Source: Chlamydiota bacterium (GTDB lineage: Bacteria > Auribacterota > JACPWU01). Taken from it: a DNA stretch of 32,000 nucleotides. Position numbers and translations under genes: made by a program. Below, piece by piece: positions 5,428-29,442 of this stretch. The notes beneath the pieces are model-generated. The model saw only the letters and a list, made by a program, of their open reading frames with translations. It was not told the origin of the DNA and ran no database searches. Numbering within the stretch: the stretch's first letter is position 1; each line of letters opens with the position of its first letter. The DNA lies in NCBI GenBank assembly GCA_016196885.1, contig JACPWU010000046.1:1-32000 (forward strand), in the 5' to 3' direction.

Positions 5428-5891
5428 AGAGCCTATTTCCTCAAGAAAGTGAAGCCTCGCGATTTTCTGAAGGGTCGGAAGTGAGGCCTCTTTAAGGCAT
5501 CAGGAGCGCCCGAAACAAATCCAAACTGCTCTTTCATCTTCCTAAAATAGGCGCTGCGATCATTATGACCCGTCATACGAGGCGCAATCACCCAATAACC
5601 GATCTTGGCCTCTTTCAATTTCTTCGTAATCCCTTCCGTATGAAACCCACCCACCACAAGCGCTGCACAGGTGAGTTTCTTTTCCTGAATAATTTCAAGA
5701 GACTTCTCGAACATGATTTGGTCTCGCTTCAGAACTTGGGCATAGAATTTTTGGGAGAGGACGAAGATCTCTCCAAAATCTTCAAGAATAGGGGATGATA
5801 GATTATTTGCTTCAGAATTGACTTCTTTTGTTAAGGTCTTCAGACGATAAAGGAAGTCTTTTACATATTCTTCTTCTCTTTGTGAGTCTTT

Positions 5892-6025
5892 CCTCCCCCT
5901 TATTTTTTTAAGGGGGACTGGGGGGGTTAACTCCTCTTCTTTCATAACTCCCCTAACCCCTCTCAAGCTTTTACAAGATTTTATAGTCCCCACGGGATAG
6001 TCCCCTTGGGATATCTTAAGAGGGG
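5892..6025. repeat. multi-hairpin palindromic element lying in frame inside the coding sequence (same family as 27979..28064 and 28326..28426)
   Basis: Hairpins CCCCCTTA-loop-TAAGGGGG, GGGGGTTAA...TAACCCCTC, and CCCCTCT...AGAGGGG. Translated as SPLK...LRGVRGVMKEEELTPPVPLKKIRGRK. Confidence 0.6.
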
Positions 6026-6925
6026 AAAAAGAACCACCCCATACAACTTTTACATCCCCCCTTTTCCCTTCCAAATTTACAATACGCTTCAACCGTCTAT
6101 AATCGTCCTGAAGTTGAAAAAGTTCTTTCTCTCGATCCTCTCTCAGCAACACTTTAAAGATTTTCTCTTCCACTTGATGAATTTCATTGTCCAACTGTGT
6201 CCATGAGATTTCACTTAAAAACTTCATTTGCTGAAACAGCAATTCCAAATTTTTGTATTTTTGTGAATCCTGAACTCTACTTAAATATTTACTTAAATAT
6301 AAATAATGTTCCTCATCGCTCACCTGTCCTAAGCGATGCTCTAATACTTGTCTCAAAAGTTCTTTCAATTCCTCTTTTGGAAGTTGCTTTTCTAACACTT
6401 CAAGAAATTCTAAATACTCACTCTCTAATTTCTTATGGTTTGTATCCATTTCCAAAGCTTTCAAGGTTTGAAATTTTCCTAACACCGGATTTCTTTCACC
6501 TATTTTTTCTGAAATACTCTCTCGTATAATCCCACCAAATAAGAAACATATGCATCCATGCCTAATTTCAATGTTTCGTAATTTTCTTTCTTTTTCATCA
6601 ACTCCTGAATCTCTTCAGAATAAATTTTCTCTGACAACTTTTGAAATACATGCTCCAAATCCTGCCAGACCTGTTCTTGCCGCCCCTTTTCCTCCAAAAG
6701 CTCACCCATCACTTTGAGGTTCTGAACATAATCAGGCAAATTTTCGACGCCCACCCCTTTCACTTTTTCAGGGCCCTGCTCAATGAGAAAAGCTTCTACC
6801 GCATCCAATTCATTTTTATCCAAGAATTTCTTTAGGCAAGAGGTCAACACCTTTTGATCCGGAAAGGACCAAAAAAAGGACATGTCCATGTCTTTGCTGG
6901 CGGCTTCGGAGAGAACATAAAAAAG

Positions 6926-6989
6926 GCTGGGGAGCTAGGAGGCTAGAGGACTTCCTCTCCCTAGCTTCCCAGCTTCCTAACTTCCTAGC
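6926..6989. repeat. inverted repeat built from 8-nt units (GCTRGGAG arrays facing CTCCYAGC arrays), inside the coding sequence
   Basis: gctggggagctaggaggctagagga / tcctctccctagcttcccagcttcctaacttcctagc. Equivalent element at 29086..29157. Translated as KLGSWEARERKSSSLLAPQ. Confidence 0.7.
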
Positions 6990-7529
6990 TCTGATTGTCA
7001 TTTCTTCTAATATTTCCAATATCCTTTTGATATTCCCTTGTGCTTCAGCATTACAATGAATGTCTTCAATGATAAAAACATGAGGTTGACCTGGAACTGT
7101 GAATGGGTCTATCACTTCTCCAATGGAGGAAGAAAGGTGAAAAGTCTCAAAAGAAGGTTTTAGCTTCCCATATTTGAGAGAGGACGTTCCCTGAGTAGGA
7201 GTTAGAGTTTTTAGAGGGGTTATAAATTGTGAATCTTAGCCCAACGCATAGGAAAAATCGTAGAACAGAAAGGAAATACAAATAAATAGGCTTATGAACG
7301 ACTGAAGACATCGTTTGCGCCCTTTTTGACAAAGCCTCATAAATCCCCCCAGCCTCAGTGTCCTATTATAAAGACGCAATTGAAGGCTCAAATGCCAAAA
7401 AAATAACGTCAAATTGACCCTTCAGTACCCCTTAAACTCCTATTTTTTACCTAAGTCAAAAAAAGAGTAGACTTTTTTATACTTTGGTATAAACTGTAAG
7501 AGATCGTCGGAAACCTTTGGAAAAGTGAT

Positions 7530-8728: not shown

Positions 8729-10363
8729 ATGACCCTCTCAAAAAAACATCTTTTTTCACTTCTCTTCATTGTTGTCGTCATCCTGATTGCTTACGCCAAC
8801 AGCTTCCAGAACCACTTTGTTTGGGACGATGACCTGCTCATTGTTCAAAATCAATACCTTCAGAGTCCTCATCACATCTCCAACTTTTTCACAGAAAATA
8901 TTTTTAAGGGTTCAGATCACGAAAGCAATTTTTGGAGGCCTTTACAATTGATCAGTTTCTTCATGGATCAAAAAATCTGGGGAGCAAATGCTTACGGATT
9001 TCATTTAACGAATCTTTTACTGCATATCCTTGCATCCTTAGAGGTTTATCTGTTTATCTTTCTTCTCTTTCGAAGAAAGGGTCTGGCCCTTCTCACCAGC
9101 CTTTTATGGGCCCTACACCCCATTCAAACGGAAGCTGTCACTTATATTTCAGGCCGCGCAGATCCTCTGGCTGCCTACTTCATCCTTTCATCTCTTTGCC
9201 TGTATCTCTATCATCGTCAAAGAGCATCACTTCTTGCCTATCTGGGAAGTCTTATTTCATTTGTTCTTGCTCTTCTCTCCAAAGAAATGGCACTTATGCT
9301 TCCGGTTTATCTTATGCTGTTCGAAACGGTCCTTTATCAAAAGGGAGAAAAAAAATTCTGGAATATTTTTTTAAGATTACTTCCCTTCATCTCAATTGTG
9401 TCACTATATATAAGCCTTCGTCTGACAGTTCTTAACTTCTCAGACAGTCCCCTGATCCAAGATAATCCCTTTCGCCTCATTCCTCTTCCATTAAGACTGC
9501 TCACTTTCACCAAAACCCTTTTTGGCATTTCGTTTAATTCCATCACCCATCACTGGGAAACAGGCTATTTTTGGCTTCTTCTTTTTCCCTTTAATCTTCA
9601 CATGGAAAGAAGCACCGCTTACGCCAAAAGTTTCTTTCAATGGCCCTATCTTTCAACCCTCATCCTTTTTGGAATATGGATATTTGCCCTCTTTCGAACC
9701 TCTCAGAAATCTAAACTTCAATTTTTTGGCCTAACCCTTTTTCTCATCGCCCTTCTGCCTTTTTCAGACCTTATCCCCCTCAACGCAAACATGGCAGAGC
9801 ATTGGCTGTACATTCCTTCTATCGGAATTTTTCTCATCTTGTCTGATTTAGTCTTCCAAGGGTTCAAAAAATATCCAATCACAGTTTCATGCCTTTTCAT
9901 CCCCTATCTCCTCTATCTCGGAACAACAACCTATTTTAGGAATCAAGATTGGAAAGATGAAATGACAATTTGGCAGCAAACGGCAGAACTCTCACAGAGC
10001 TCTCACATCCATGGAAATTTAGCAGTTGCTTATGGCCGGCAAGGAAATCTTCAAAAAGCAGAGAAAGAACTTAAAAAAGCCGTCGCACTACAATTTAATT
10101 ATCCCGAGGCCCACAACAATCTCGGGCTCCTTTATATTGCCAAAGGAAATTTAACGGAAGCTCTCCAAGAATTTTCCTGGGCCATTCAATTTAATCCCAC
10201 CTATTCCAATGCCTATAAAAATCTGGGAGACGTTTATGAGGCCATGAACAATTTAGACGAAGCAAAGAAAATGTGGAAAAAAGCACTTGAAATCAATCCA
10301 ATGAATGAAGGAGCGAAGGAAAAACTAAAAAAATCATCTCACCAACCCCTCTCCACCACCTAA
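8729..10363 (+). CDS. polytopic membrane protein with C-terminal TPR repeats (TMTC/PMT-like glycosyltransferase family)
   Basis: N-terminal FVWDDDLLIVQN ... FWRPLQLISFFMD ... HLTNLLLHIL ... HPIQTEAVTYISGRADPLA with many TM segments. C-terminal TPR units (AEKELKKAVALQFNYPEAHNNLGLLYIAKGNLTEA...). Confidence 0.8.
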   Translation: MTLSKKHLFSLLFIVVVILIAYANSFQNHFVWDDDLLIVQNQYLQSPHHISNFFTENIFKGSDHESNFWRPLQLISFFMDQKIWGANAYGFHLTNLLLHILASLEVYLFIFLLFRRKGLALLTSLLWALHPIQTEAVTYISGRADPLAAYFILSSLCLYLYHRQRASLLAYLGSLISFVLALLSKEMALMLPVYLMLFETVLYQKGEKKFWNIFLRLLPFISIVSLYISLRLTVLNFSDSPLIQDNPFRLIPLPLRLLTFTKTLFGISFNSITHHWETGYFWLLLFPFNLHMERSTAYAKSFFQWPYLSTLILFGIWIFALFRTSQKSKLQFFGLTLFLIALLPFSDLIPLNANMAEHWLYIPSIGIFLILSDLVFQGFKKYPITVSCLFIPYLLYLGTTTYFRNQDWKDEMTIWQQTAELSQSSHIHGNLAVAYGRQGNLQKAEKELKKAVALQFNYPEAHNNLGLLYIAKGNLTEALQEFSWAIQFNPTYSNAYKNLGDVYEAMNNLDEAKKMWKKALEINPMNEGAKEKLKKSSHQPLSTT

Positions 10364-10494
10364 GGCGGGTGGCACGACTGGGGGTCCCCTGCTAACGCCA
10401 GCAGGTCGAGACTTACGTCCCAAAAGTTCTAAACGAAAAACCACCAACGAGACCGATGCCGTTAGTGGGGGTGAGGAGGGACAGGACCCGCCTT
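10362..10494. ncRNA. candidate structured RNA / conserved repeat element, copy A (short form)
   Basis: Shares four conserved blocks with 16595..16790: GGCMCGACTGGGGGTCCC, GCCAGCAGGTMGAG, ACCGATGCCGT, GGGTGAGGAGGGACAGGMCC. Closing stem AAGGCGGGT/ACCCGCCTT. Inner stem CTAACG (10392-97) / CGTTAG (10460-65). It fills the gap between two convergent stop codons. Strand not determined. Confidence 0.45.
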
Positions 10495-10496
10495 CC

Positions 10497-11303
10497 CTAC
10501 ATATTCACGCACCGATGCGTTTTCTGAGGAATGTCACGATGATGGATAATGCGATTTCGGCCCTCTTCTTTCGCCATGTAAAGCGCCTCATCGGCCTGGC
10601 GCAAAAGTTCATCCGCATCCAAGGCATCTGAAGGGCAGGTTGCAATCCCTCCGCTCACCGTCACATGCACAATCTCCTTCGAGCCAGGGATCAAAAACTC
10701 TTGAGTTTTAATATGAACTCTCAAACGGTCTGCGACTTCCATGGCCACACGCCCCAATGTTTGAGACATCACCACTACAAATTCTTCCCCCCCAAAACGA
10801 GCGACCAAATCCGCCCCCCTTGAATAACACGATAAAATCTTCGCAATTCTCTGAAGCACACGATCCCCCACCAAATGCCCCCACTTGTCGTTCAGGCGTT
10901 TGAAATGATCCACATCCAGAAACAACAATGAAAAGGCGAGCGGATAACGGCGGCTCTTGTCAAATTCCTTTTCCAGATAATCCTTCAAGAAACGCCGGTT
11001 GTAAAGACCTGTGAGGGAATCTCGGATGGCGCAATCTTGAGTCCTGCGATACTGATCTCTTTCAATGAGCACAGGCCCACGGATTTTACGCACACGGTTC
11101 ATAAAATAATCGGCGAGGGCAACGGTAAAACCCACAGGACGGCTTAAAGCTTCTTCCAACTGCTTCTGATGGCTGAGGATCGAATACCAGTGCTGTTCGG
11201 CTTCTTCTTCGCTGAGGGTCAGGCTGCAGAATTGACTTAAAAGAGTCTTAAAACTCCTTTTCATCATATCCCCCCTTTTCGTTAGTCGTTCGTTATTCGT
11301 CAT
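10497..11303 (-). CDS. diguanylate cyclase (GGDEF domain, with an RxxD I-site)
   Basis: RFGGEEFVVVM active-site motif, with RGAD five residues upstream (I-site), and LDVDHFKRLNDKWGH. The first 12 codons (MTNNERLTKRGD) come from a heptamer repeat array. The more likely start is ATG 11267 (MMKRSF), preceded by AAAAGGGGGG. Confidence 0.9.
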   Translation of the reverse strand: MTNNERLTKRGDMMKRSFKTLLSQFCSLTLSEEEAEQHWYSILSHQKQLEEALSRPVGFTVALADYFMNRVRKIRGPVLIERDQYRRTQDCAIRDSLTGLYNRRFLKDYLEKEFDKSRRYPLAFSLLFLDVDHFKRLNDKWGHLVGDRVLQRIAKILSCYSRGADLVARFGGEEFVVVMSQTLGRVAMEVADRLRVHIKTQEFLIPGSKEIVHVTVSGGIATCPSDALDADELLRQADEALYMAKEEGRNRIIHHRDIPQKTHRCVNM

Positions 11304-11364
11304 GAGTCGTTAGTTAAAAAATTATGTGTTTCTACTAACGACAAACGACTATAAACTAACGACT
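11280..11364. repeat. hairpin made of two facing arrays of 7-nt units (cgttagt-type / actaacg-type)
   Basis: Left arm cgttagt cgttcgt tattcgt catgagt cgttagt (11280-11314). Right arm actaacg acaaacg actataa actaacg act (11334-11364). It lies between the mraZ stop and the GGDEF start. Confidence 0.75.
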
Positions 11365-11369
11365 GTTTT

Positions 11370-11813
11370 TTAAATCGAGAACCCTACACTCTTTTCTGCA
11401 ATTCCTTTGGAGGTCTCGCGTATTTTCTTGGACTCTCGATTCCACTCCTCCTGATCCCAAATTTCAATCCGGTGGCGAACCCCCACCATAAAAATCCCGT
11501 CCTTTAACTGAGCATACTCCCTCAGATTTTTGGGAACGAGCATTCTTCCCTGTGGATCCACAGGACATTCACTGGCATTGGCAAAGAGAAATCGTTCAAG
11601 CCGGCGGGCATCTTCGTGACTGTTCTGAAGGGTCTCCACCTCATTGGCAAACTTCTCCCAGCGAGGTCTGGAGTAAATGTAAAGGCATTTTTCGAATCCT
11701 ATGGTCATGATCGGATGTTTCGTTGTCCCGCTGTACAGTTCCTCCCGCATCTTGGCTGGAACGCTGATTCGGTCTCTGGTGTCAATGCGATGTTCAAACG
11801 TCCCTAGAAACAT
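11370..11813 (-). CDS. mraZ: transcriptional regulator MraZ
   Basis: MFLGTFEHRIDTRDRISVPAKMREEL plus a second half with VDPQGRMLVPKNLREYA (duplicated SpoVT/AbrB-type MraZ repeats). 147 aa. Confidence 0.9.
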   Translation of the reverse strand: MFLGTFEHRIDTRDRISVPAKMREELYSGTTKHPIMTIGFEKCLYIYSRPRWEKFANEVETLQNSHEDARRLERFLFANASECPVDPQGRMLVPKNLREYAQLKDGIFMVGVRHRIEIWDQEEWNRESKKIRETSKGIAEKSVGFSI

Positions 11814-11885: not shown

Positions 11886-11929
11886 TAGAAAAAAATGAAA
11901 AAAATAGGGGCAAGCAGCAAGGAGAGCAT

Positions 11930-11988
11930 TGTAGTCGCCCCATTTATGGGGCCGTCTATGGATTTGCCCGATGAATCGGGCGACTACA
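11930..11988. repeat. REP-like double-hairpin element, copy 1
   Basis: Perfect 10-nt terminal inverted repeat TGTAGTCGCC/GGCGACTACA enclosing hairpins CCCCATTTATGGGG and GCCCGATGAATCGGGC. The reverse complement matches 16521..16567 apart from a ~12-nt internal indel. Confidence 0.85.
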
Positions 11989-12012
11989 CATTCTTGACCC
12001 TCAACCCTGTTT

Positions 12013-15841: not shown

Positions 15842-16405
15842 TTATTTGAGTGTCCATCTGTGAAGGCATTTGTAAGATGCCCCTGCCCGGCTTAAGAAAC
15901 TTTGCATGAATGATATCACATGGATAGAATGACTCGCAAAGCTTGTTTTATCAAATCTTGAGGCCCTTTCACCAAAACCTTCAACCTTTTGATCATCTTT
16001 GACGCGACCTATTGTTAAATGAGGAGAAAAAGCCCCTTTCTCCCTTTCAAAACCTAGATTTTCTAATTTAGACTCCAGAATTTCAGCTAATTTTAAAAGA
16101 GCGTCTCCTCCTTTAGAAAGCCCAATCCAAATCACAGACGGCCGATTCAAATTTGGAAAGGCACCTAAGCCCGTAAATTCCATTTCAAAAGAGGAAAGGT
16201 CCGACTGCTGAAGGGCTTGAGCCACAGAACTTTTAATCGCATCCACTTGATGTGGATTCACTTCTCTCAGAAACTTGAGCGTCAAATGCAAATTTTCTTT
16301 GGGCACCCAGCGAACTTTGCTTACAGAATTTTTTAAATCTGCGAGAGCAACATCTATTGCTTCTTTCACTTTTTCAGGAATCTCAATGGCAATAAAAAGA
16401 CGCAT
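15842..16405 (-). CDS. thpR: RNA 2',3'-cyclic phosphodiesterase (2H family, ThpR/LigT)
   Basis: [10 protein letters not shown] start and two HxT motifs (HLTLKF and PHLTIGR). 187 aa. Confidence 0.88.
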
Positions 16406-16412
16406 GTAAAAA

Positions 16413-16447
16413 CCGTATATCGTTGTTCGTCATCCGTCGTCCGTATA
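16413..16447. repeat. array of five imperfect 7-nt units immediately 5' of the thpR start
   Basis: ccgtata tcgttgt tcgtcat ccgtcgt ccgtata. It ends 7 nt from the ATG at 16405. Confidence 0.7.
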
Positions 16448-16520
16448 CTCTACCCCAATAATTTCAATGATCTTTCAAGATCATCGTATACGATAAAAGT
16501 TCTCCCCATCATGCTTTTTT

Positions 16521-16567
16521 TGTAGTCGCCCGATTCATCGGGCAGCCCCATAAATGGGGCGACTACA
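16521..16567. repeat. REP-like double-hairpin element, copy 2 (inverted relative to copy 1)
   Basis: TGTAGTCGCC-CGATTCATCGGGC-A-GCCCCATAAATGGGGC-GACTACA. Same termini and both hairpins as 11930..11988 in the opposite orientation. Confidence 0.85.
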
Positions 16568-16594
16568 AAATGAGCCTCACTTTCATAACAAAAT

Positions 16595-16790
16595 AAGCGA
16601 GTGGCCCGACTGGGGGTCCCCCATTGAGCGCCAGCAGGTAGAGGCAAATAACTTTCAATTTCTATCAACAACAAATTCGATACCGATGCCGTCTCAGCAT
16701 AAGGAAAAAAACATCTACTATCGCAGTCGGCCCTTTTTCTGCCACAGGCAGCGGGCCTCCTTTGCTGGGTGAGGAGGGACAGGCCCCACT
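16595..16790. ncRNA. candidate structured RNA / conserved repeat element, copy B (long form with a ~70-nt extra segment)
   Basis: Same four conserved blocks as 10362..10494. Inner stem TGAGCG (16625-30) / CGTCTCA (16690-96) differs from copy A but stays complementary. The element abuts the cinA stop codon. Confidence 0.45.
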
Positions 16791-18019
16791 TATTTTAAAA
16801 ACCTCCTCACACAATCAAACGCCGCCTGTGTCGCTTTAAAGCGAACAGTATCGCGGTCTCCGGAAAAATGAAAAGATTTTGCTGTCGTTTTCTTTCCATC
16901 GCTCAAGCCAATCCACACCAAGCCCACAGGTTTCTGAGGAGAACCGCCTTCCGGCCCCGCAATCCCAGTAATAGAAAGCCCTAAATCCGCTTTGAACTCT
17001 TTGCAAACCCCTTGGGCCATTTCTAAAGCGACCTTTTCGCTCACCGCTCCATATTTTTTTAAACTCTTTTCGTCAACGCCTAAAAAGTGTTTTTTTGAAT
17101 CATTCGAATAACTCACCACCCCACCCCGAAAAATTTTTGACACCCCCGAAACCGAAGTCAAACGCTGAGAGAAAAGACCGCCTGTACAGGATTCAGCCAC
17201 CGTAAACTGTTTATTTTTTTTGATCAAAAGATTTGCTATGACCTCATGCAAAGAGTTATTGTTTTCTCCATAAAGCCAAGGTTGAAGTGCCCTTTCTATT
17301 TTTTTAAGACGTTCTTGAAAGATCCTTTTCTTTCCTTGAGGAATGGCAACGCGAACACTGACACCTGAGGGGGCGGAAACATAACCCAAACTTCTTAAAA
17401 ATGGATCATCATTTCTAAAAGTCCGATTCATCAATTCTTGAACACTCGACTCCACAATTCCATAAGTTTTGAATGTACAAAATTCAAAAATCCCTTTTCC
17501 AAAAAACTTTTTAACTCTGGGAAGAACATCCCTTTCAAACATCGGCCCCATTTCATAGGGAGGACCCGGCAGGAGAAAAATTTGTTTCCCCTGATATTCT
17601 AAGAACATGCCAGGGGCTGTTCCCACCTTATTCCAAATGACCTGAGCCCCTTTTAAAATAAGGGCCTGTGCCTTGGCAATTTTGGGAAGCGGAAGATTTC
17701 GAGTATGGAATTTTTTCTGAATATCTTTCAAAACTTTTGAATTAGATTTTAAAGGAAGATTTAAAACTTGAGAGGTTACTTCACGGGTTAAATCATCGGT
17801 GGTGGGTCCTAAACCACCCGTCAGAATGATAATATCGGCAAAGCGAACACACGCAGAGAAAACACTTTTTAAGTCTTGATCATCATCTCCAACCACCACA
17901 TGACGATGGAGAGGAATTCCCACTTCGGAAAGCCAACCTGCCATGAGGTAAAAATCTTGATCCTGGACTTTCCCCAACATCAACTCTGTTCCTGTCGCAA
18001 TCGTGACAATCTTTTTCAA
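16790..18019 (-). CDS. cinA: competence/damage-inducible protein CinA (MoCF-type N-domain plus nicotinamide-nucleotide amidase C-domain)
   Basis: N-terminal ILTGGLGPTTDDLT. C-terminal VAESCTGGLFSQRLTSVSGVS and GLSITGIAGPEGG. Confidence 0.92.
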   Translation of the reverse strand: MKKIVTIATGTELMLGKVQDQDFYLMAGWLSEVGIPLHRHVVVGDDDQDLKSVFSACVRFADIIILTGGLGPTTDDLTREVTSQVLNLPLKSNSKVLKDIQKKFHTRNLPLPKIAKAQALILKGAQVIWNKVGTAPGMFLEYQGKQIFLLPGPPYEMGPMFERDVLPRVKKFFGKGIFEFCTFKTYGIVESSVQELMNRTFRNDDPFLRSLGYVSAPSGVSVRVAIPQGKKRIFQERLKKIERALQPWLYGENNNSLHEVIANLLIKKNKQFTVAESCTGGLFSQRLTSVSGVSKIFRGGVVSYSNDSKKHFLGVDEKSLKKYGAVSEKVALEMAQGVCKEFKADLGLSITGIAGPEGGSPQKPVGLVWIGLSDGKKTTAKSFHFSGDRDTVRFKATQAAFDCVRRFLK

Positions 18020-19902: not shown

Positions 19903-21007
19903 ATTCAATGAATCCTCCGCCCAACACCTGATCCCCATCATAAAAGACAGCCGCCTGCCCAGGCGTTACTGCTTTTTCTGGACTCAACAATTGGACCTGT
20001 GCGTGACTCTCATCCAAAAACGAAACGGTCACTCTCGCCCCTTCATGCATACTTCGAATTTTCACAGTACATTCCACAAGGTCTTTTGGTTTTTGATTTG
20101 AGATCCAATGTGTGTCTTTTGTCCTAAATCCTGAAACATAAAGGTCTTTTTCTTCTCCCACAATCACGGTGTTTGTTTTTCCATCTAAAGCCACTACATA
20201 CGCAGGATGTCCAAATGCAATCCCCAACCCTTTTCTCTGGCCAATGGTAAAATTCTGAATGCCTTCATGCGTTCCAATCATATTTCCAGCCATGTCTTTC
20301 ATAGGCCCTTTTTGAAACTCACCGGGGACCGCCTTCTTCAAGAAGTTGACATATTTTCCATCCGGTACAAAACAAATCTCCTGGCTGTCTGATTTATCGA
20401 AAACTTTAAGCCCTGCTTTTTTGGCCAATTCACGACTTTCAGATTTTGTCCTATTTCCCAAAGGAAAATAAAGTTTGGAAAGCTTGCCTTGAGTCAGGGT
20501 ATAAAGAAAATAGGACTGATCTTTCTTTAAATCCTTTCCCTTACGTAAAATAAATTCTCCTTTTTTTTCTTCTACATTGGCATAGTGGCCTGTCGCTAAT
20601 TTCCAAGCTCCTAATTTTTCAGCAAATTCAAGCATGCTTCCAAATTTTAATTTCCGATTGCACACAACACAAGGATTGGGGGTTCTCCCCTCACGATATT
20701 CATTACAAAAATAATCAATGACATTTTCTTGAAAAGCCTCTTTGTGATCAATCACATAAAAAGGAATGCCCAATTGATAGGCCACAGACCGACCATCTTC
20801 CACCGCTCGAGGCCCACAGCAGGCATGTTCTCCTGTATCCGAGCAATCCCCAAGCCAAACTTTGAGTGTGATCCCAATCACCTCATAGCCCTGCTCTTTT
20901 AGAAGCAAAGCCGCAACACTGGAATCCACTCCACCGCTCATGCCAACGACAATGCGAAGCGATTTTGGATTTTGGATTTTGGATTTTGGATTTAACGATT
21001 CCATCAT
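19901..21007 (-). CDS. mnmA: tRNA 2-thiouridine(34) synthase MnmA
   Basis: PP-loop VVGMSGGVDSSVAALLL, CCGPRAVEDGRSVA, GHYA. The start overlaps the stop of the upstream cysteine desulfurase gene. Confidence 0.95.
   Translation of the reverse strand: MMESLNPKSKIQNPKSLRIVVGMSGGVDSSVAALLLKEQGYEVIGITLKVWLGDCSDTGEHACCGPRAVEDGRSVAYQLGIPFYVIDHKEAFQENVIDYFCNEYREGRTPNPCVVCNRKLKFGSMLEFAEKLGAWKLATGHYANVEEKKGEFILRKGKDLKKDQSYFLYTLTQGKLSKLYFPLGNRTKSESRELAKKAGLKVFDKSDSQEICFVPDGKYVNFLKKAVPGEFQKGPMKDMAGNMIGTHEGIQNFTIGQRKGLGIAFGHPAYVVALDGKTNTVIVGEEKDLYVSGFRTKDTHWISNQKPKDLVECTVKIRSMHEGARVTVSFLDESHAQVQLLSPEKAVTPGQAAVFYDGDQVLGGGFIE
20961..20993. repeat. tandem repeat (gattttg) x4.7 inside the first codons of mnmA
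   Basis: Read directly. Translated as NPKSKIQNPKS. Confidence 0.9.
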
Positions 21008-27523: not shown

Positions 27524-29442
27524 TGATCAAATTCTTGAGAAGAAAGATTAGCCTTCTGAAGCATTTTTTCTCCTAGGCCTTCCATTACTTCATAAAATCC
27601 CTCTTTCGATGGCTCTTCTATAAATTCATTAAATTCTTTCATTTTTTGAAAATAAACGCGGCGATCATCTATTTTTTCTGAATGGGGGGCAATGACGCAG
27701 TAGCCCATCTCAGCTTCTTTTAATTTTTCTTTGAGGGCATCTGTATGAAAACCTCCGACGACGACAGCGGCATTTTGAAGTTTCTTTTCTTTGATCTCTT
27801 GAGAAAGTTTCTGATAGAAAATTTTGTCTCGATCAAGCACTTTTTTGTAAAACTTTTTGGCGGTCTGGAAGATGTTTTCAAAGTCAGGGGATTCGAAAGA
27901 GAGGTTATTTTCTTCGCACAACTTTCTTAAGGCTTGAGAAAAGTTTATTACGTACTCTTCTTCTCTTTGTGAGTTTTTCCTCCCCCTTATTTTTTTAAGG
28001 GGGATTGAGGGGGTTACTTCCTCCTCTTTCATAACTCCCCTAACCCCTCTTAACTTAAGAGGGGAACGAAGGCCACTCCATATAGCTTTTAAATCTTCTC
28101 TCTTTCCCTCCATCGATATCACTCGCTTCAAAACAGTGTAATCATTTTCAAGCTTCAGCAGTCTCTTGATTTCCTTTTCATTTCCTTTTCCCCTGTACGC
28201 TGAACGCTCTACGCTGCCCGCTAATTTTTCAACCTCTGAGTCCAATTTTTCCCATGAGATTTTTTTCATAAGGGACATCTGCTCGATAAAAAATTTGAGA
28301 TTGGGATAGAGTTCTTTTTGTTTTTCCCTCCCCTTAATATAAGGGGAGCCGGTGGGGTTATTGACTTCTTCCATAACTCCCCCTACCCCTAACTCCCCAG
28401 GCCCCTCTTTAAAAAAAAGAGGGGGGACGTTCTCTTCATGTTCTGGTTCTAGATATTTACTTAAGAAAAGATAATGCGCTTCATCCCCAATTCTCCCCAA
28501 ACGATGTTCCAGCACATTTTTCATCACTTCGTTAAGTTCTTCTTTCGTCAACTGTTTCTCTAATGTTTGAAGAAATGAAAGATATTCGCTTTCGACTCTC
28601 GACATATCTGTTTTCTTCTCAAGAGTTTGAAGTTTTAAATAAAGACTTATTTGAGGAAAATCCTCTTCTAACTTCAAACCTCTAACATTTAACTGCTGTA
28701 GATATTCCCCCATTCCAATTTTGAAATCTTCATATTGCTTCTTTTTTTTCATCAACTCTAAAAGTTCTTGAGGATAAATTTTTTCTCTCAAACTTTGAAA
28801 CAATTCTTCCAAATCGCTCCACACATGCTCTTGAAGTTCTCGCTCTTCCATCAATTCATTCATGAGTTTTACATTCTCAAGATAGGGCTGAAGTTCTTCA
28901 ACGCCCAAACCGATTGCTCCACCAGTTTTTTCTCCCATTAAAAAGGACTCCACGCCATTGATGTCTCTATCCTGAATGAACTGATCTTGAACCAAAGGCA
29001 GTATTTCTTTTTTTGGAAAAGCTGTAAAAAAACTCATGTCCATCCATCCCGTCGCAGCCTCGGAAAAAACACAAAAAGACTGGCTGGAAAGCTGGGAGGC
29101 TAGGAGGCTGGGAGAAAGCTTTTGCTGTTTAGCTTCCCAGCTCCCCAGCTTCCTAGCATCTTTTGTTTCTTCCTTCAACACCTTCAATATCCTCGCTATG
29201 TTCCTCTCAACCTCTGGATTACAATGAATATCCTCAATTAAGAAGACGGTAGGATTCCCCGATAAAAGCACTTGATCTGTGATTTCTCCCATATCTGCAG
29301 GGATTGGGTTGGAATTCAAGAACATGTCCGGCTGGGAGGGGAGATAAGTCTTAATTGCTTGATGTGGAATGGGTTGTGAATAAGGCTCTATTTGTTGACT
29401 CCAACTTGGTTGAATATCATAAGAGACAAAGCAAAGACACAA
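27442..29442 (-). CDS. Tiki/TraB/ChaN-superfamily protein (intact paralog of 5433..7332)
   Basis: N-terminal VFLIEDIHCNPEVERNIARIL (ChaN/erythromycin-esterase-type GE-H-N motif). C-terminal LDRDKIFYQKL...AAVVVGGFHTDALKEKLKEAEMGYCVIAP (TraB/GumN-type motif). The track start is TTG. An ATG at 29470 with a hydrophobic leader lies one frame off. Confidence 0.75.
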   Translation of the reverse strand: MCLCFVSYDIQPSWSQQIEPYSQPIPHQAIKTYLPSQPDMFLNSNPIPADMGEITDQVLLSGNPTVFLIEDIHCNPEVERNIARILKVLKEETKDARKLGSWEAKQQKLSPSLLASQLSSQSFCVFSEAATGWMDMSFFTAFPKKEILPLVQDQFIQDRDINGVESFLMGEKTGGAIGLGVEELQPYLENVKLMNELMEERELQEHVWSDLEELFQSLREKIYPQELLELMKKKKQYEDFKIGMGEYLQQLNVRGLKLEEDFPQISLYLKLQTLEKKTDMSRVESEYLSFLQTLEKQLTKEELNEVMKNVLEHRLGRIGDEAHYLFLSKYLEPEHEENVPPLFFKEGPGELGVGGVMEEVNNPTGSPYIKGREKQKELYPNLKFFIEQMSLMKKISWEKLDSEVEKLAGSVERSAYRGKGNEKEIKRLLKLENDYTVLKRVISMEGKREDLKAIWSGLRSPLKLRGVRGVMKEEEVTPSIPLKKIRGRKNSQREEEYVINFSQALRKLCEENNLSFESPDFENIFQTAKKFYKKVLDRDKIFYQKLSQEIKEKKLQNAAVVVGGFHTDALKEKLKEAEMGYCVIAPHSEKIDDRRVYFQKMKEFNEFIEEPSKEGFYEVMEGLGEKMLQKANLSSQEFDQWEKSVPSLKPVIQALKKNMGIRQAPF
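27979..28064. repeat. multi-hairpin palindromic element in frame within the CDS (family copy)
   Basis: cctcccccttatttttttaaggggg / gagggggtta...ctaacccctc / cccctcttaacttaagagggg. Translated as SPLKLRGVRGVMKEEEVTPSIPLKKIRGRK. Confidence 0.65.
28195..28222. repeat. array of four 7-nt units inside the CDS
   Basis: gtacgct gaacgct ctacgct gcccgct. Translated as AGSVERSAYRG. The paralog has unrelated sequence at this position. Confidence 0.6.
28326..28426. repeat. multi-hairpin palindromic element in frame within the CDS, absent from the paralog
   Basis: ccctccccttaatataagggga ... ggtggggtta...ccctacccct ... cccctctttaaaaaaaagagggggg. It corresponds to a ~36-40 aa insertion (NVPPLFFKEGPGELGVGGVMEEVNNPTGSPYIKGREK) relative to the 350-aa paralog fragment. 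Confidence 0.7.
29086..29157. repeat. inverted repeat of 8-nt units in frame within the CDS
   Basis: gctgggag gctaggag gctgggag - aaagcttttgctgttt - agcttccc agctcccc agcttcct agc. Translated as KLGSWEAKQQKLSPSLLASQLSSQ. Confidence 0.75.

Follow-up and report, generated by a model that had tools for sequence, protein, structure and literature searches.

Mobile GC-rich palindromes have invaded a compact, AT-rich genome in yeast mitochondria, where they are known as GC clusters. In Rickettsia, palindromic elements carried in frame within genes (Rickettsia palindromic elements, RPEs) are an established phenomenon (Ogata et al. 2000, 2002, summarised in PMC10969869). Here we describe two copies, A and B, of a folded repeat in the first 32,000 nt of contig JACPWU010000046.1, which belongs to the metagenome-assembled genome (MAG) of a Chlamydiota bacterium; this whole stretch is referred to as the window, loci on other contigs and in metagenomes are given L-numbers, and database proteins are given P-numbers. 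We think it fairly likely that A and B belong to a so far uncatalogued family of non-coding insertion elements, GC-rich and imperfectly palindromic, of the RPE type or of the type of MITEs (miniature transposable elements with inverted repeats), shared by the Chlamydiota MAG and Patescibacteria (candidate phyla radiation, CPR), and the element is unlikely to be a regulatory RNA gene of the classical kind. Nothing of this kind turned up for CPR or Chlamydiae in searches of the literature.

The element resembles RPEs in being a short non-coding hairpin repeat that is dispersed in reduced genomes and has no known transposase, and in occupying both intergenic sites and in-frame sites in unrelated housekeeping genes, to which it adds a peptide without destroying the protein; such in-frame insertions with an intact host protein were found in related loci, not in the window. 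It differs from RPEs in its shorter core (~80 nt versus ~100–150 nt), in its cross-phylum hosts (Patescibacteria and a Chlamydiota MAG), in being GC-rich within AT-rich genomes, and in combining near-invariant unpaired junctions with covarying stems and orientation flips at one site; the likeness noted here is one of description. With MITEs (Correia/NEMIS, ERIC, BOX/RUP, Coxiella QMITE) it shares a small size under about 500 bp, the lack of an open reading frame (ORF), inverted termini, dispersal in 16 copies that include identical ones, and a location at gene ends, where MITEs can act as terminators or mRNA stabilisers. Unlike in MITEs, however, the termini form no conserved terminal inverted repeat but covary or borrow from the flank, there is no clear target-site duplication, and no related autonomous insertion sequence (IS) was identified for this element. 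Taken together, its features agree with published accounts of RPEs and of MITEs located inside genes (PMC10969869). The repetitive extragenic palindromes (REPs) and their composites (BIMEs), GTAG/CGTC-tagged palindromes associated with RAYT transposases, are likewise GC-rich, located at gene 3' ends, recognised as hairpins and oriented by their asymmetry (PMC3733652), but they are 20–40 bp long, begin with a head of the GTAG or CGTC type and lie outside genes (PMC3733652), whereas the present element measures 80–200 nt, has no such heads and also lies inside ORFs, and hence is not a REP. Finally, the coding palindromes of Nematomorpha mitochondria are also GC-rich palindromes in AT-rich compact genomes whose coding sequence is still translated, although they are organellar, unrelated in sequence and made of long perfect inverted repeats (PMC6649704).

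Along the minus strand of the window, cinA is followed by copy B, a LigT-like gene, recA, alaS, mraZ, a GGDEF gene and copy A, and then by a convergent TPR gene. Copy A is an exact fill of the 133-nt gap between the stop codons of the convergent TPR gene (plus strand, 10361–10363) and GGDEF gene (minus strand, 10497–10499), and copy B abuts the cinA stop codon (16790–16792), which sits within its 3' arm. Four sequence blocks are common to A and B in identical order; the 15-mer CGACTGGGGGTCCCC and the 17-mer GGGTGAGGAGGGACAGG, contained in the first and the fourth of them, each occur exactly twice in the 32-kb window, against chance expectations of 0.32 and 0.07 matches, respectively, with up to 3 mismatches allowed. 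The features of the two copies are as follows.

10362–10494, plus strand: copy A, whole element (R1 covariance model, 47 bits, E = 3e-8)
10362–10370, plus strand: A, 5' strand of the closing stem P1, AAGGCGGGT; partner at 10486–10494 (ACCCGCCTT), 9 bp, 100% complementary
10371–10385, plus strand: A, conserved junction block 1, GGCACGACTGGGGGT
10386–10470, plus strand: A, domain of the inner stem P2, CCCC(TG)CTAACG / CGTTAG(T)GGGG, with internal loop CCAGCA/GATGC, helix P3 GGTC/GACC and a 43-nt A-rich loop (10408–10450); P2 covaries in the family
10471–10485, plus strand: A, conserved junction block 4, GTGAGGAGGGACAGG
10441–10468, minus strand: A, hairpin resembling a terminator, with TTTTTCGTTT after it; located downstream of the GGDEF gene (consensus scan alone)
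16590–16796, plus strand: copy B, whole element with outer stem AAAATAA/TTATTTT (sequence comparison)
16601–16617, plus strand: B, degenerate P1 5' strand GTGG, overlapping block 1 GGCCCGACTGGGGGT; partner CCAC at 16786–16789
16618–16696, plus strand: B, P2 domain CCCCCA..TGAGCG / CG(T)CTCA, compensatory relative to A, with loop CCAGCA/GATGC, P3 GGTA/TACC and a 40-nt A-rich loop (16641–16680)
16697–16765, plus strand: B-specific 69-nt insertion with its own hairpin GGCCC..TGCC ACA GGCA..GGGCC
16766–16789, plus strand: B, P2 3' end TGGG, block 4 TGAGGAGGGACAGG and P1 3' strand CCCCAC
A 10368–10389 and B 16600–16621: shared block 1, GTGGC(A/C)CGACTGGGGGTCCCC
Copies A and B: shared block, second in order, GCGCCAGCAGGT(C/A)GAG
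Copies A and B: shared block, third in order, ACCGATGCCGT
A 10469–10489 and B 16767–16787: shared block 4, GGGTGAGGAGGGACAGG(A/C)CCC

An earlier sequence-only reading of the window had pointed out the four collinear blocks, the closing and inner stems that differ between the copies and are still complementary, an extra segment of ~70 nt in B and the adjacency of both copies to stop codons. All of these observations hold, with slightly changed limits for B. The closing stem is AAGGCGGGT/ACCCGCCTT in A and GTGG/CCAC plus AAAATAA/TTATTTT in B, the inner stem is CTAACG/CGTTAG in A and TGAGCG/CG(T)CTCA in B, and a third helix (P3), absent from the earlier reading, also covaries. The 69-nt insertion interrupts the 3' strand of the inner stem of B. 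The folding energy of neither strand was better than that of shuffled sequence (z = -0.19 and -0.26), so that support for the structure comes from copy-to-copy comparison.

How widely is this structure distributed? A second metagenome scan, which used block 4 (GGTGAGGAGGGACAGGNCC), returned 69 loci, and in 12 of them block 1 was located ~46 nt upstream of block 4. These copies represent a compact element of ~80 nt with the layout (GA)GGGGU-GGCCCGACUGGGG-N-P2 hairpin-UGAGGAGGGACAGG-ACCCC(GA). The covariance model R1, built from the 12 compact copies, also recovers L025 (52 bits), in which an extra hairpin is inserted between GAC and CUGGGG, as well as L088 (85 bits) and a copy in L070 cut by the contig end; copy B is recognisable by eye alone owing to the insertions within it. 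There are 14 further copies beyond the window and 16 overall, at least some of the 14 being hosted by Patescibacteria, and GGCCCGACUGGGG is near-invariant across all 16. The window copies are expanded, lineage-specific members of this compact family: P1 of A is the counterpart of GGGGU/ACCCC, and A and B carry 50–120 extra nt in and beside the P2 tip, where an additional helix and the A-rich loop of 40–43 nt are found, and retain with other base pairs the pattern of the compact P2 (pyrimidine mismatch, 2 bp, G.A, C-G). Element length ranges from 80 to 207 nt, without any coding capacity of its own.

Complementary stretches were seen in two of the insertions. In B, CAGTCGGCCC (16724–16733) is complementary to GGCCCGACTG of block 1 (16603–16612), and the insertion of L025 (~634–671, read on the minus strand) contains CCCCAG, complementary to CTGGGG of conserved block 1; these stretches could be remnants of a nested inverted copy or could provide an alternative pairing.

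The dispersal of the family is most directly visible in L017, L034 and L075, three loci of one metagenome whose cores of 78–80 nt are 100% identical and whose flanks are unrelated. The GC content of the element is 0.54–0.74, compared with 0.38–0.49 in its hosts. At six loci the element lies within an ORF whose frame remains open and in phase, in genes for MnmA (L044, L046), GltX (L033), the 3-methyladenine DNA glycosylase Mpg (L075) and GatA (L071, L022); further in-frame cases are the GatA protein P0121 and the glycosyltransferase P0122/L088. Five of these six copies are antisense to the gene and add the peptide GPVPPHP, which continues as PSRATP in four antisense loci and as PQSGHP in L071, where the hairpin is longer. 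The sense copy of L022 encodes GVTRLGVPHGAQ...GGEEGQ, a peptide that recurs in database fragments of two proteins, GatA and a glycosyltransferase; a protein-database search with element-encoded peptides gave these two matches only. In the BLASTP comparison of MnmA from L044 with MnmA from the window, a 25-aa gap falls exactly at the element, and alignments to PDB structures show GatA and the glycosylase to be otherwise intact on either side of it. In GltX, the element is present only in a 97%-identical orthologue and is missing from orthologues with at most 74% identity; the named best GltX matches are Patescibacteria/Parcubacteria. The same GltX loop that holds the L033 element contains a low-complexity NPKSKIQNPK-like insert in the orthologues P0124, P0126, P0127 and P0131, and the same peptide motif also begins the MnmA ORF of the window (~20950–21007, minus strand).

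Conservation within essential genes would also be explained if the element were a miniature intervening sequence, removed from transcripts in an intron-like manner. P1 joins the two boundaries, the in-ORF copy is more conserved than the flanking codons, and a LigT-like 2',5' RNA ligase gene lies beside copy B, all of which would suit such a sequence. On the other hand, the frame is open and in phase at 6/6 in-ORF loci despite lengths of 80, 82 and 84 nt, 5/7 in-ORF copies are antisense, and no similarity to an Rfam ribozyme or intron family was found. Since hairpins of all three lengths restore the frame of their host, selection for translation through the element is indicated, which argues against excision, and we regard the intron-like explanation as highly improbable.

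Comparison with relatives of the Chlamydiota MAG provides the corresponding evidence for the window copies themselves. Related Chlamydiota contigs are syntenic with the window (CinA 54–56% identical), and R1 finds no copy in those examined (L009–L013). In L009, the cinA-LigT and GGDEF-TPR gaps measure 66 and 18 bp and contain no element; in L011, the corresponding gaps of 133 and 150 bp are filled by unrelated low-complexity palindromes. Because the orthologous sites in relatives lack the element, A and B are lineage-specific insertions. The sequence-only reading had dismissed a MITE-like origin on the grounds that the termini of A and B are unequal. This dismissal is contradicted by homologues in either orientation and in frame within genes, by orthologous sites without the element and by the 100% identical copies with unrelated flanks, and unequal termini prove to be a family-wide trait, as the closing stem covaries and often runs into locus-specific sequence. 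The palindromes that fill the cinA-LigT gap of L011 (1500–1632) are of the AAATC/CAAAA type and related to the low-complexity insert of the GltX orthologues.

Statistical support for the fold was obtained for P2. When 12 distinct copies, window A, L025 and L088 among them, are aligned by the model, 95.8% of the P2 cells are paired, 7 pairs are changed on both sides, the covariation score is reached by 0/500 shuffles and slid controls are 36–50% paired; this alignment was fitted to R1, with block 4 fixed by the search pattern. On a MAFFT alignment, P2 is 97% paired and five pairs are changed on both sides. P1 occurs as GGGGU/ACCCC, as GAGGGU/ACCCUC (L071) and as GGCGGGU/ACCCGCC (window A), and in several copies it runs into locus-specific sequence, reaching 18 bp in L071. 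The junction strands GGCCCGACUGGGG and UGAGGAGGGACAGG can, as predicted by RNAfold, zip into CCC/GGG followed by tandem G.A and CU/AG; the junction columns are invariant. Neither the counts of G.U versus A.C nor the folding of both strands revealed a clear asymmetry by which the element could be assigned to one strand.

Strong covariation together with invariant unpaired junctions is also what a structured RNA beneficial to the host would show, whether it serves in cis as a 3' stabiliser or terminator, as a processing or protein-binding site, or as a released small RNA, in which case it would have spread by being recruited as a useful module. Optional hairpins, a feature of many RNA families, are inserted at loops and junctions (L025, window B), and resident copies are better conserved than neighbouring coding DNA. 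Both window copies lie antisense directly past the stops of minus-strand genes, and the minus strand of A forms the terminator-like hairpin with a T-run. The other palindromes in the orthologous gaps of L011 suggest that these positions favour a hairpin. The consensus scan, however, reported no terminator for B, terminator-like sites in the region number 6 against a shuffle mean of 9.2, and the compact core is not followed by a U-tract. Folding energy at the level of shuffled sequence and the equal folding of both strands also speak against an RNA, as does translation through the in-ORF copies. Moreover, the element occurs in both orientations relative to host mRNAs, which would make the junctions of an RNA G-rich on one strand and C-rich on the other, and no gene class is consistently associated with it, the neighbours ranging from tRNA synthetases to repair genes and the GGDEF gene. 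We consider a host-beneficial RNA to be unlikely, at roughly one chance in a handful. The sequence-only reading had proposed a candidate new structured RNA; the conserved folded nucleic-acid structure with compensatory changes stands, whereas a discrete structured-RNA gene is contradicted by homologues in either orientation and in frame within at least five unrelated protein-coding genes, as well as by the identical copies with unrelated flanks and the lack of the element at orthologous sites.

Orientation relative to the neighbouring genes follows a pattern, in counts that are small numbers throughout. Intergenic copies were found at tsaE|polA, at lysS|serS, upstream of an nfo-like gene, between uvrB and ruvA (uvrB<>ruvA), upstream of rplC and at the ssb 3' end. 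Copies just 5' of a start codon are sense in 5/5 cases, which would again suit a structured RNA; those just past a stop codon are antisense (A at GGDEF, B at cinA, L061 at ssb), as are most in-ORF copies. All frames of the antisense strand are free of stop codons, and the sense strand contains UGA in one frame and GGAGG; the orientation pattern is therefore compatible with filtering by these strand differences. Placement in ORFs and at both 3' and 5' gene ends, in both orientations, is not that of a riboswitch or 5' leader.

Another possibility is that the palindrome acts at the DNA level: after its extrusion as a hairpin or cruciform, a protein of the host or of a mobile element would bind it, possibly in connection with genome-maintenance genes, in analogy to REP/BIME, integron attC sites, IS200/IS605 ends, single-strand initiation sites or uptake signals. 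Orientation independent of transcription and the equal folding of both strands agree with this, as do the conserved asymmetric bulges and mismatches, such as are seen in hairpins recognised as single-stranded DNA (ssDNA), and the flips of orientation in situ. In orthologous gatA genes, the insertion site, between NAYLxVF and GIPCAIKDN, is identical in L022 (1521–1602) and L071 (679–762); the element lies there in opposite orientations, with translation in either case. The L071 copy is bordered by a perfect inverted repeat of 18 bp that reaches into host codons. In L088 (370–706), the element is flanked by inverted arms of 125 nt with 86% complementarity, which represent the 5' part of one glycosyltransferase gene in two diverged versions. 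Either the assembly has joined two strains with flipped elements into a chimera, or a foldback duplication really exists here. L061 (2519–3678) and L066 (2237–3396), from different metagenomes, are 99.9% identical over 1160 nt and part exactly at the 5' edge of the element, which points to the repeat as the place of a rearrangement or of a break in the assembly.

An association with DNA repair or recombination genes would likewise favour a DNA site: 6/14 loci adjoin such genes, although the count was made post hoc and the sample of reduced genomes is small and biased. The neighbours are an nfo-like gene of the AP-endonuclease family, uvrB/ruvA, the glycosylase gene (element inside), polA, ssb (with recA near) and cinA-ligT-recA, and the loci concerned are L017, L034, L075, L032, L061/L066 and window 15842–18019. 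Against this explanation, no recombinase or HUH-type gene lies beside any copy, and the sequence contains neither the attC core sites (RYYYAAC/GTTRRRY) nor the GTAG/CGTC heads known from REPs. A protein-bound DNA site of this kind therefore seems to us a minor contender, improbable but not negligible; what keeps it in play, like the host-beneficial RNA, is that resident copies are more conserved than expected.

Several observations weigh against plain selfish DNA of the RPE/MITE type. In the DNA examined, we found no transposase and neither an autonomous partner nor a parent IS, and there is no consistent target-site duplication. The dinucleotide GA is present on both sides of the core in L017, L025, L032, L033, L034, L061 and L067 and absent in L022, L044, L046, L071, L075 and the window copies, and it may belong to the element itself and not to a duplication. 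Contig positions 1–41279 contain no third copy, leaving two copies in 41 kb, and the sample of homologues is biased by the exact match required in block 4. Resident copies also seem to be constrained: in the mnmA orthologues L044 and L046, 77/80 positions of the element are identical, compared with 81% and 74% over 300 nt of flank on each side and roughly 85–88% within 150 nt, an excess with a binomial probability of ~3e-6 relative to the 300-nt flanks. Similarly, the blocks of A and B were kept identical while the stems changed in a compensatory manner, which is unexpected for decaying selfish DNA unless the copies have been homogenised or recently replaced. The conservation of resident copies may thus reflect selection, homogenisation or replacement by active copies, or palindrome-specific templated repair that mimics compensation.

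Searches of catalogues and sequence collections placed the element in no described family. The sequence-only reading had matched the element to none of RNase P, SRP, tmRNA, 6S and the common riboswitch cores and had proposed a scan with Rfam covariance models and a collection of homologues for statistical analysis of covariation. Both were carried out, the latter giving the P2 result above. At the gathering threshold, Rfam 15 has no match in the window or in the 12 compact-copy loci, and when A, B and L061 were scanned by E-value, their scores stayed at chance level, the best being HgcC with 14.8 bits (threshold 50) and permuted tmRNA with 10 bits (threshold 47). ARAGORN detected no tRNA or tmRNA gene in the window. 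With blocks 1 and 2, a scan of genome contigs gave six matches, all in GC-rich genomes, which are considered chance matches because none has block 4, and the strict pattern of these blocks gave zero matches in the metagenomes; hence, the expanded A/B subtype was not found elsewhere. Viral contigs contained no match to blocks 1 and 2 and three chance matches to block 4, and BLAST searches of phages and plasmids with the 80-nt core returned no match. With its filters off, the R1 search scored the window copies below the default run and found no additional copy.

Known motifs were also considered and rejected: a K-turn in the P2 tip, as the bulge length differs between copies; an archaeal bulge-helix-bulge intron, given the lack of 3-4-3 geometry, the wrong orientation and the preserved frame; a SECIS or recoding signal, for which genes and orientation are wrong; a G-quadruplex, whose loops would be too long; and a resemblance of ACAGGACCCGCCUU to P4 of RNase P, which is not conserved in B.

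The window contains other repeats. A second, unrelated one is a GTAG-headed compound palindrome present in opposite orientations at 11929–11989 and 16518–16572, one copy lying between mraZ and alaS and the second ~20 nt away from copy B; it consists of TTGTAGTCGCC, the small hairpins GCCCCATTTATGGGGC and GCCCGATGAATCGGGC, and then GGCGACTACA, and is similar to members of the GTAG-tagged REP superfamily (PMC3733652). A direct repeat of 113 nt (90% identity) occupies 5854–5966 and 27941–28053, and CTTCCCAG-type tandem repeats with an 8-nt period occupy 6957–6992 and 29125–29168, so that direct and tandem repeats are common to two regions 22 kb apart, which flank or lie within very large ORFs (1350 aa; 666/1570 aa). 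Toxin-antitoxin-like pairs (nucleotidyltransferase/HEPN, PIN, HepT-like) are located in L086 at 2019–2742, 5479–6146 and 10988–11604, corresponding to 29.7–39.3 kb of the contig, the last pair (29.7–30.3 kb) lying inside the 3' end of the window.

Homology, structure, distribution, carriage in frame and presence or absence among relatives are shown by the results above. For the mechanism of mobility, the mobilising enzyme and the role in the host, we infer the following scenario for an RPE/MITE-type element. It would spread within genomes and across phyla through recognition of the folded hairpin, as ssDNA or RNA, and not of fixed terminal repeats; hairpin recognition would account for covarying stems alongside fixed unpaired junctions. 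Insertions would survive only where they are harmless, that is, in tiny intergenic gaps right past stop codons or ahead of start codons, and also in protein surface loops if they are in frame and free of stops. In the window, both copies would have landed directly past the stops of the minus-strand genes GGDEF and cinA, with which they would presumably be transcribed as 3' stem-loops, A possibly serving as a terminator. The P2 tip of the irregular ~80-nt hairpin core tolerates insertions.

A more far-reaching possibility, to which we give a low but appreciable probability, is that the element is a cross-phylum, structure-constrained nucleic-acid module under purifying selection at its resident sites, representing either a new class of hairpin-directed mobile element or a signal for genome maintenance or DNA uptake. 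In the first case, it may have its own recognition or catalytic chemistry on ssDNA or RNA; in the second, it may be used by the genome-maintenance or DNA-uptake machinery of CPR and other groundwater bacteria. The near-invariant junctions, compensatory stems, slow evolution of resident copies, in-situ flips and apparent excess of copies beside repair and recombination genes keep this module under consideration.

If the RPE/MITE-type explanation is true, selfish DNA inside protein-coding genes, for which the RPEs of Rickettsia have been the best-documented case, extends to CPR and an environmental Chlamydiota lineage, and the sequence core common across phyla means either that the element spread horizontally or that the structure by which it is recognised is under very strong constraint. 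Such inserts lengthen essential proteins, break assemblies (L061/L066, L088) and risk being misread as novel non-coding RNAs, and R1 is a concrete covariance model with which they could be masked or annotated in MAGs. The family also raises a tractable question: which enzyme recognises an imperfect hairpin of 80 nt with fixed purine-rich junctions?

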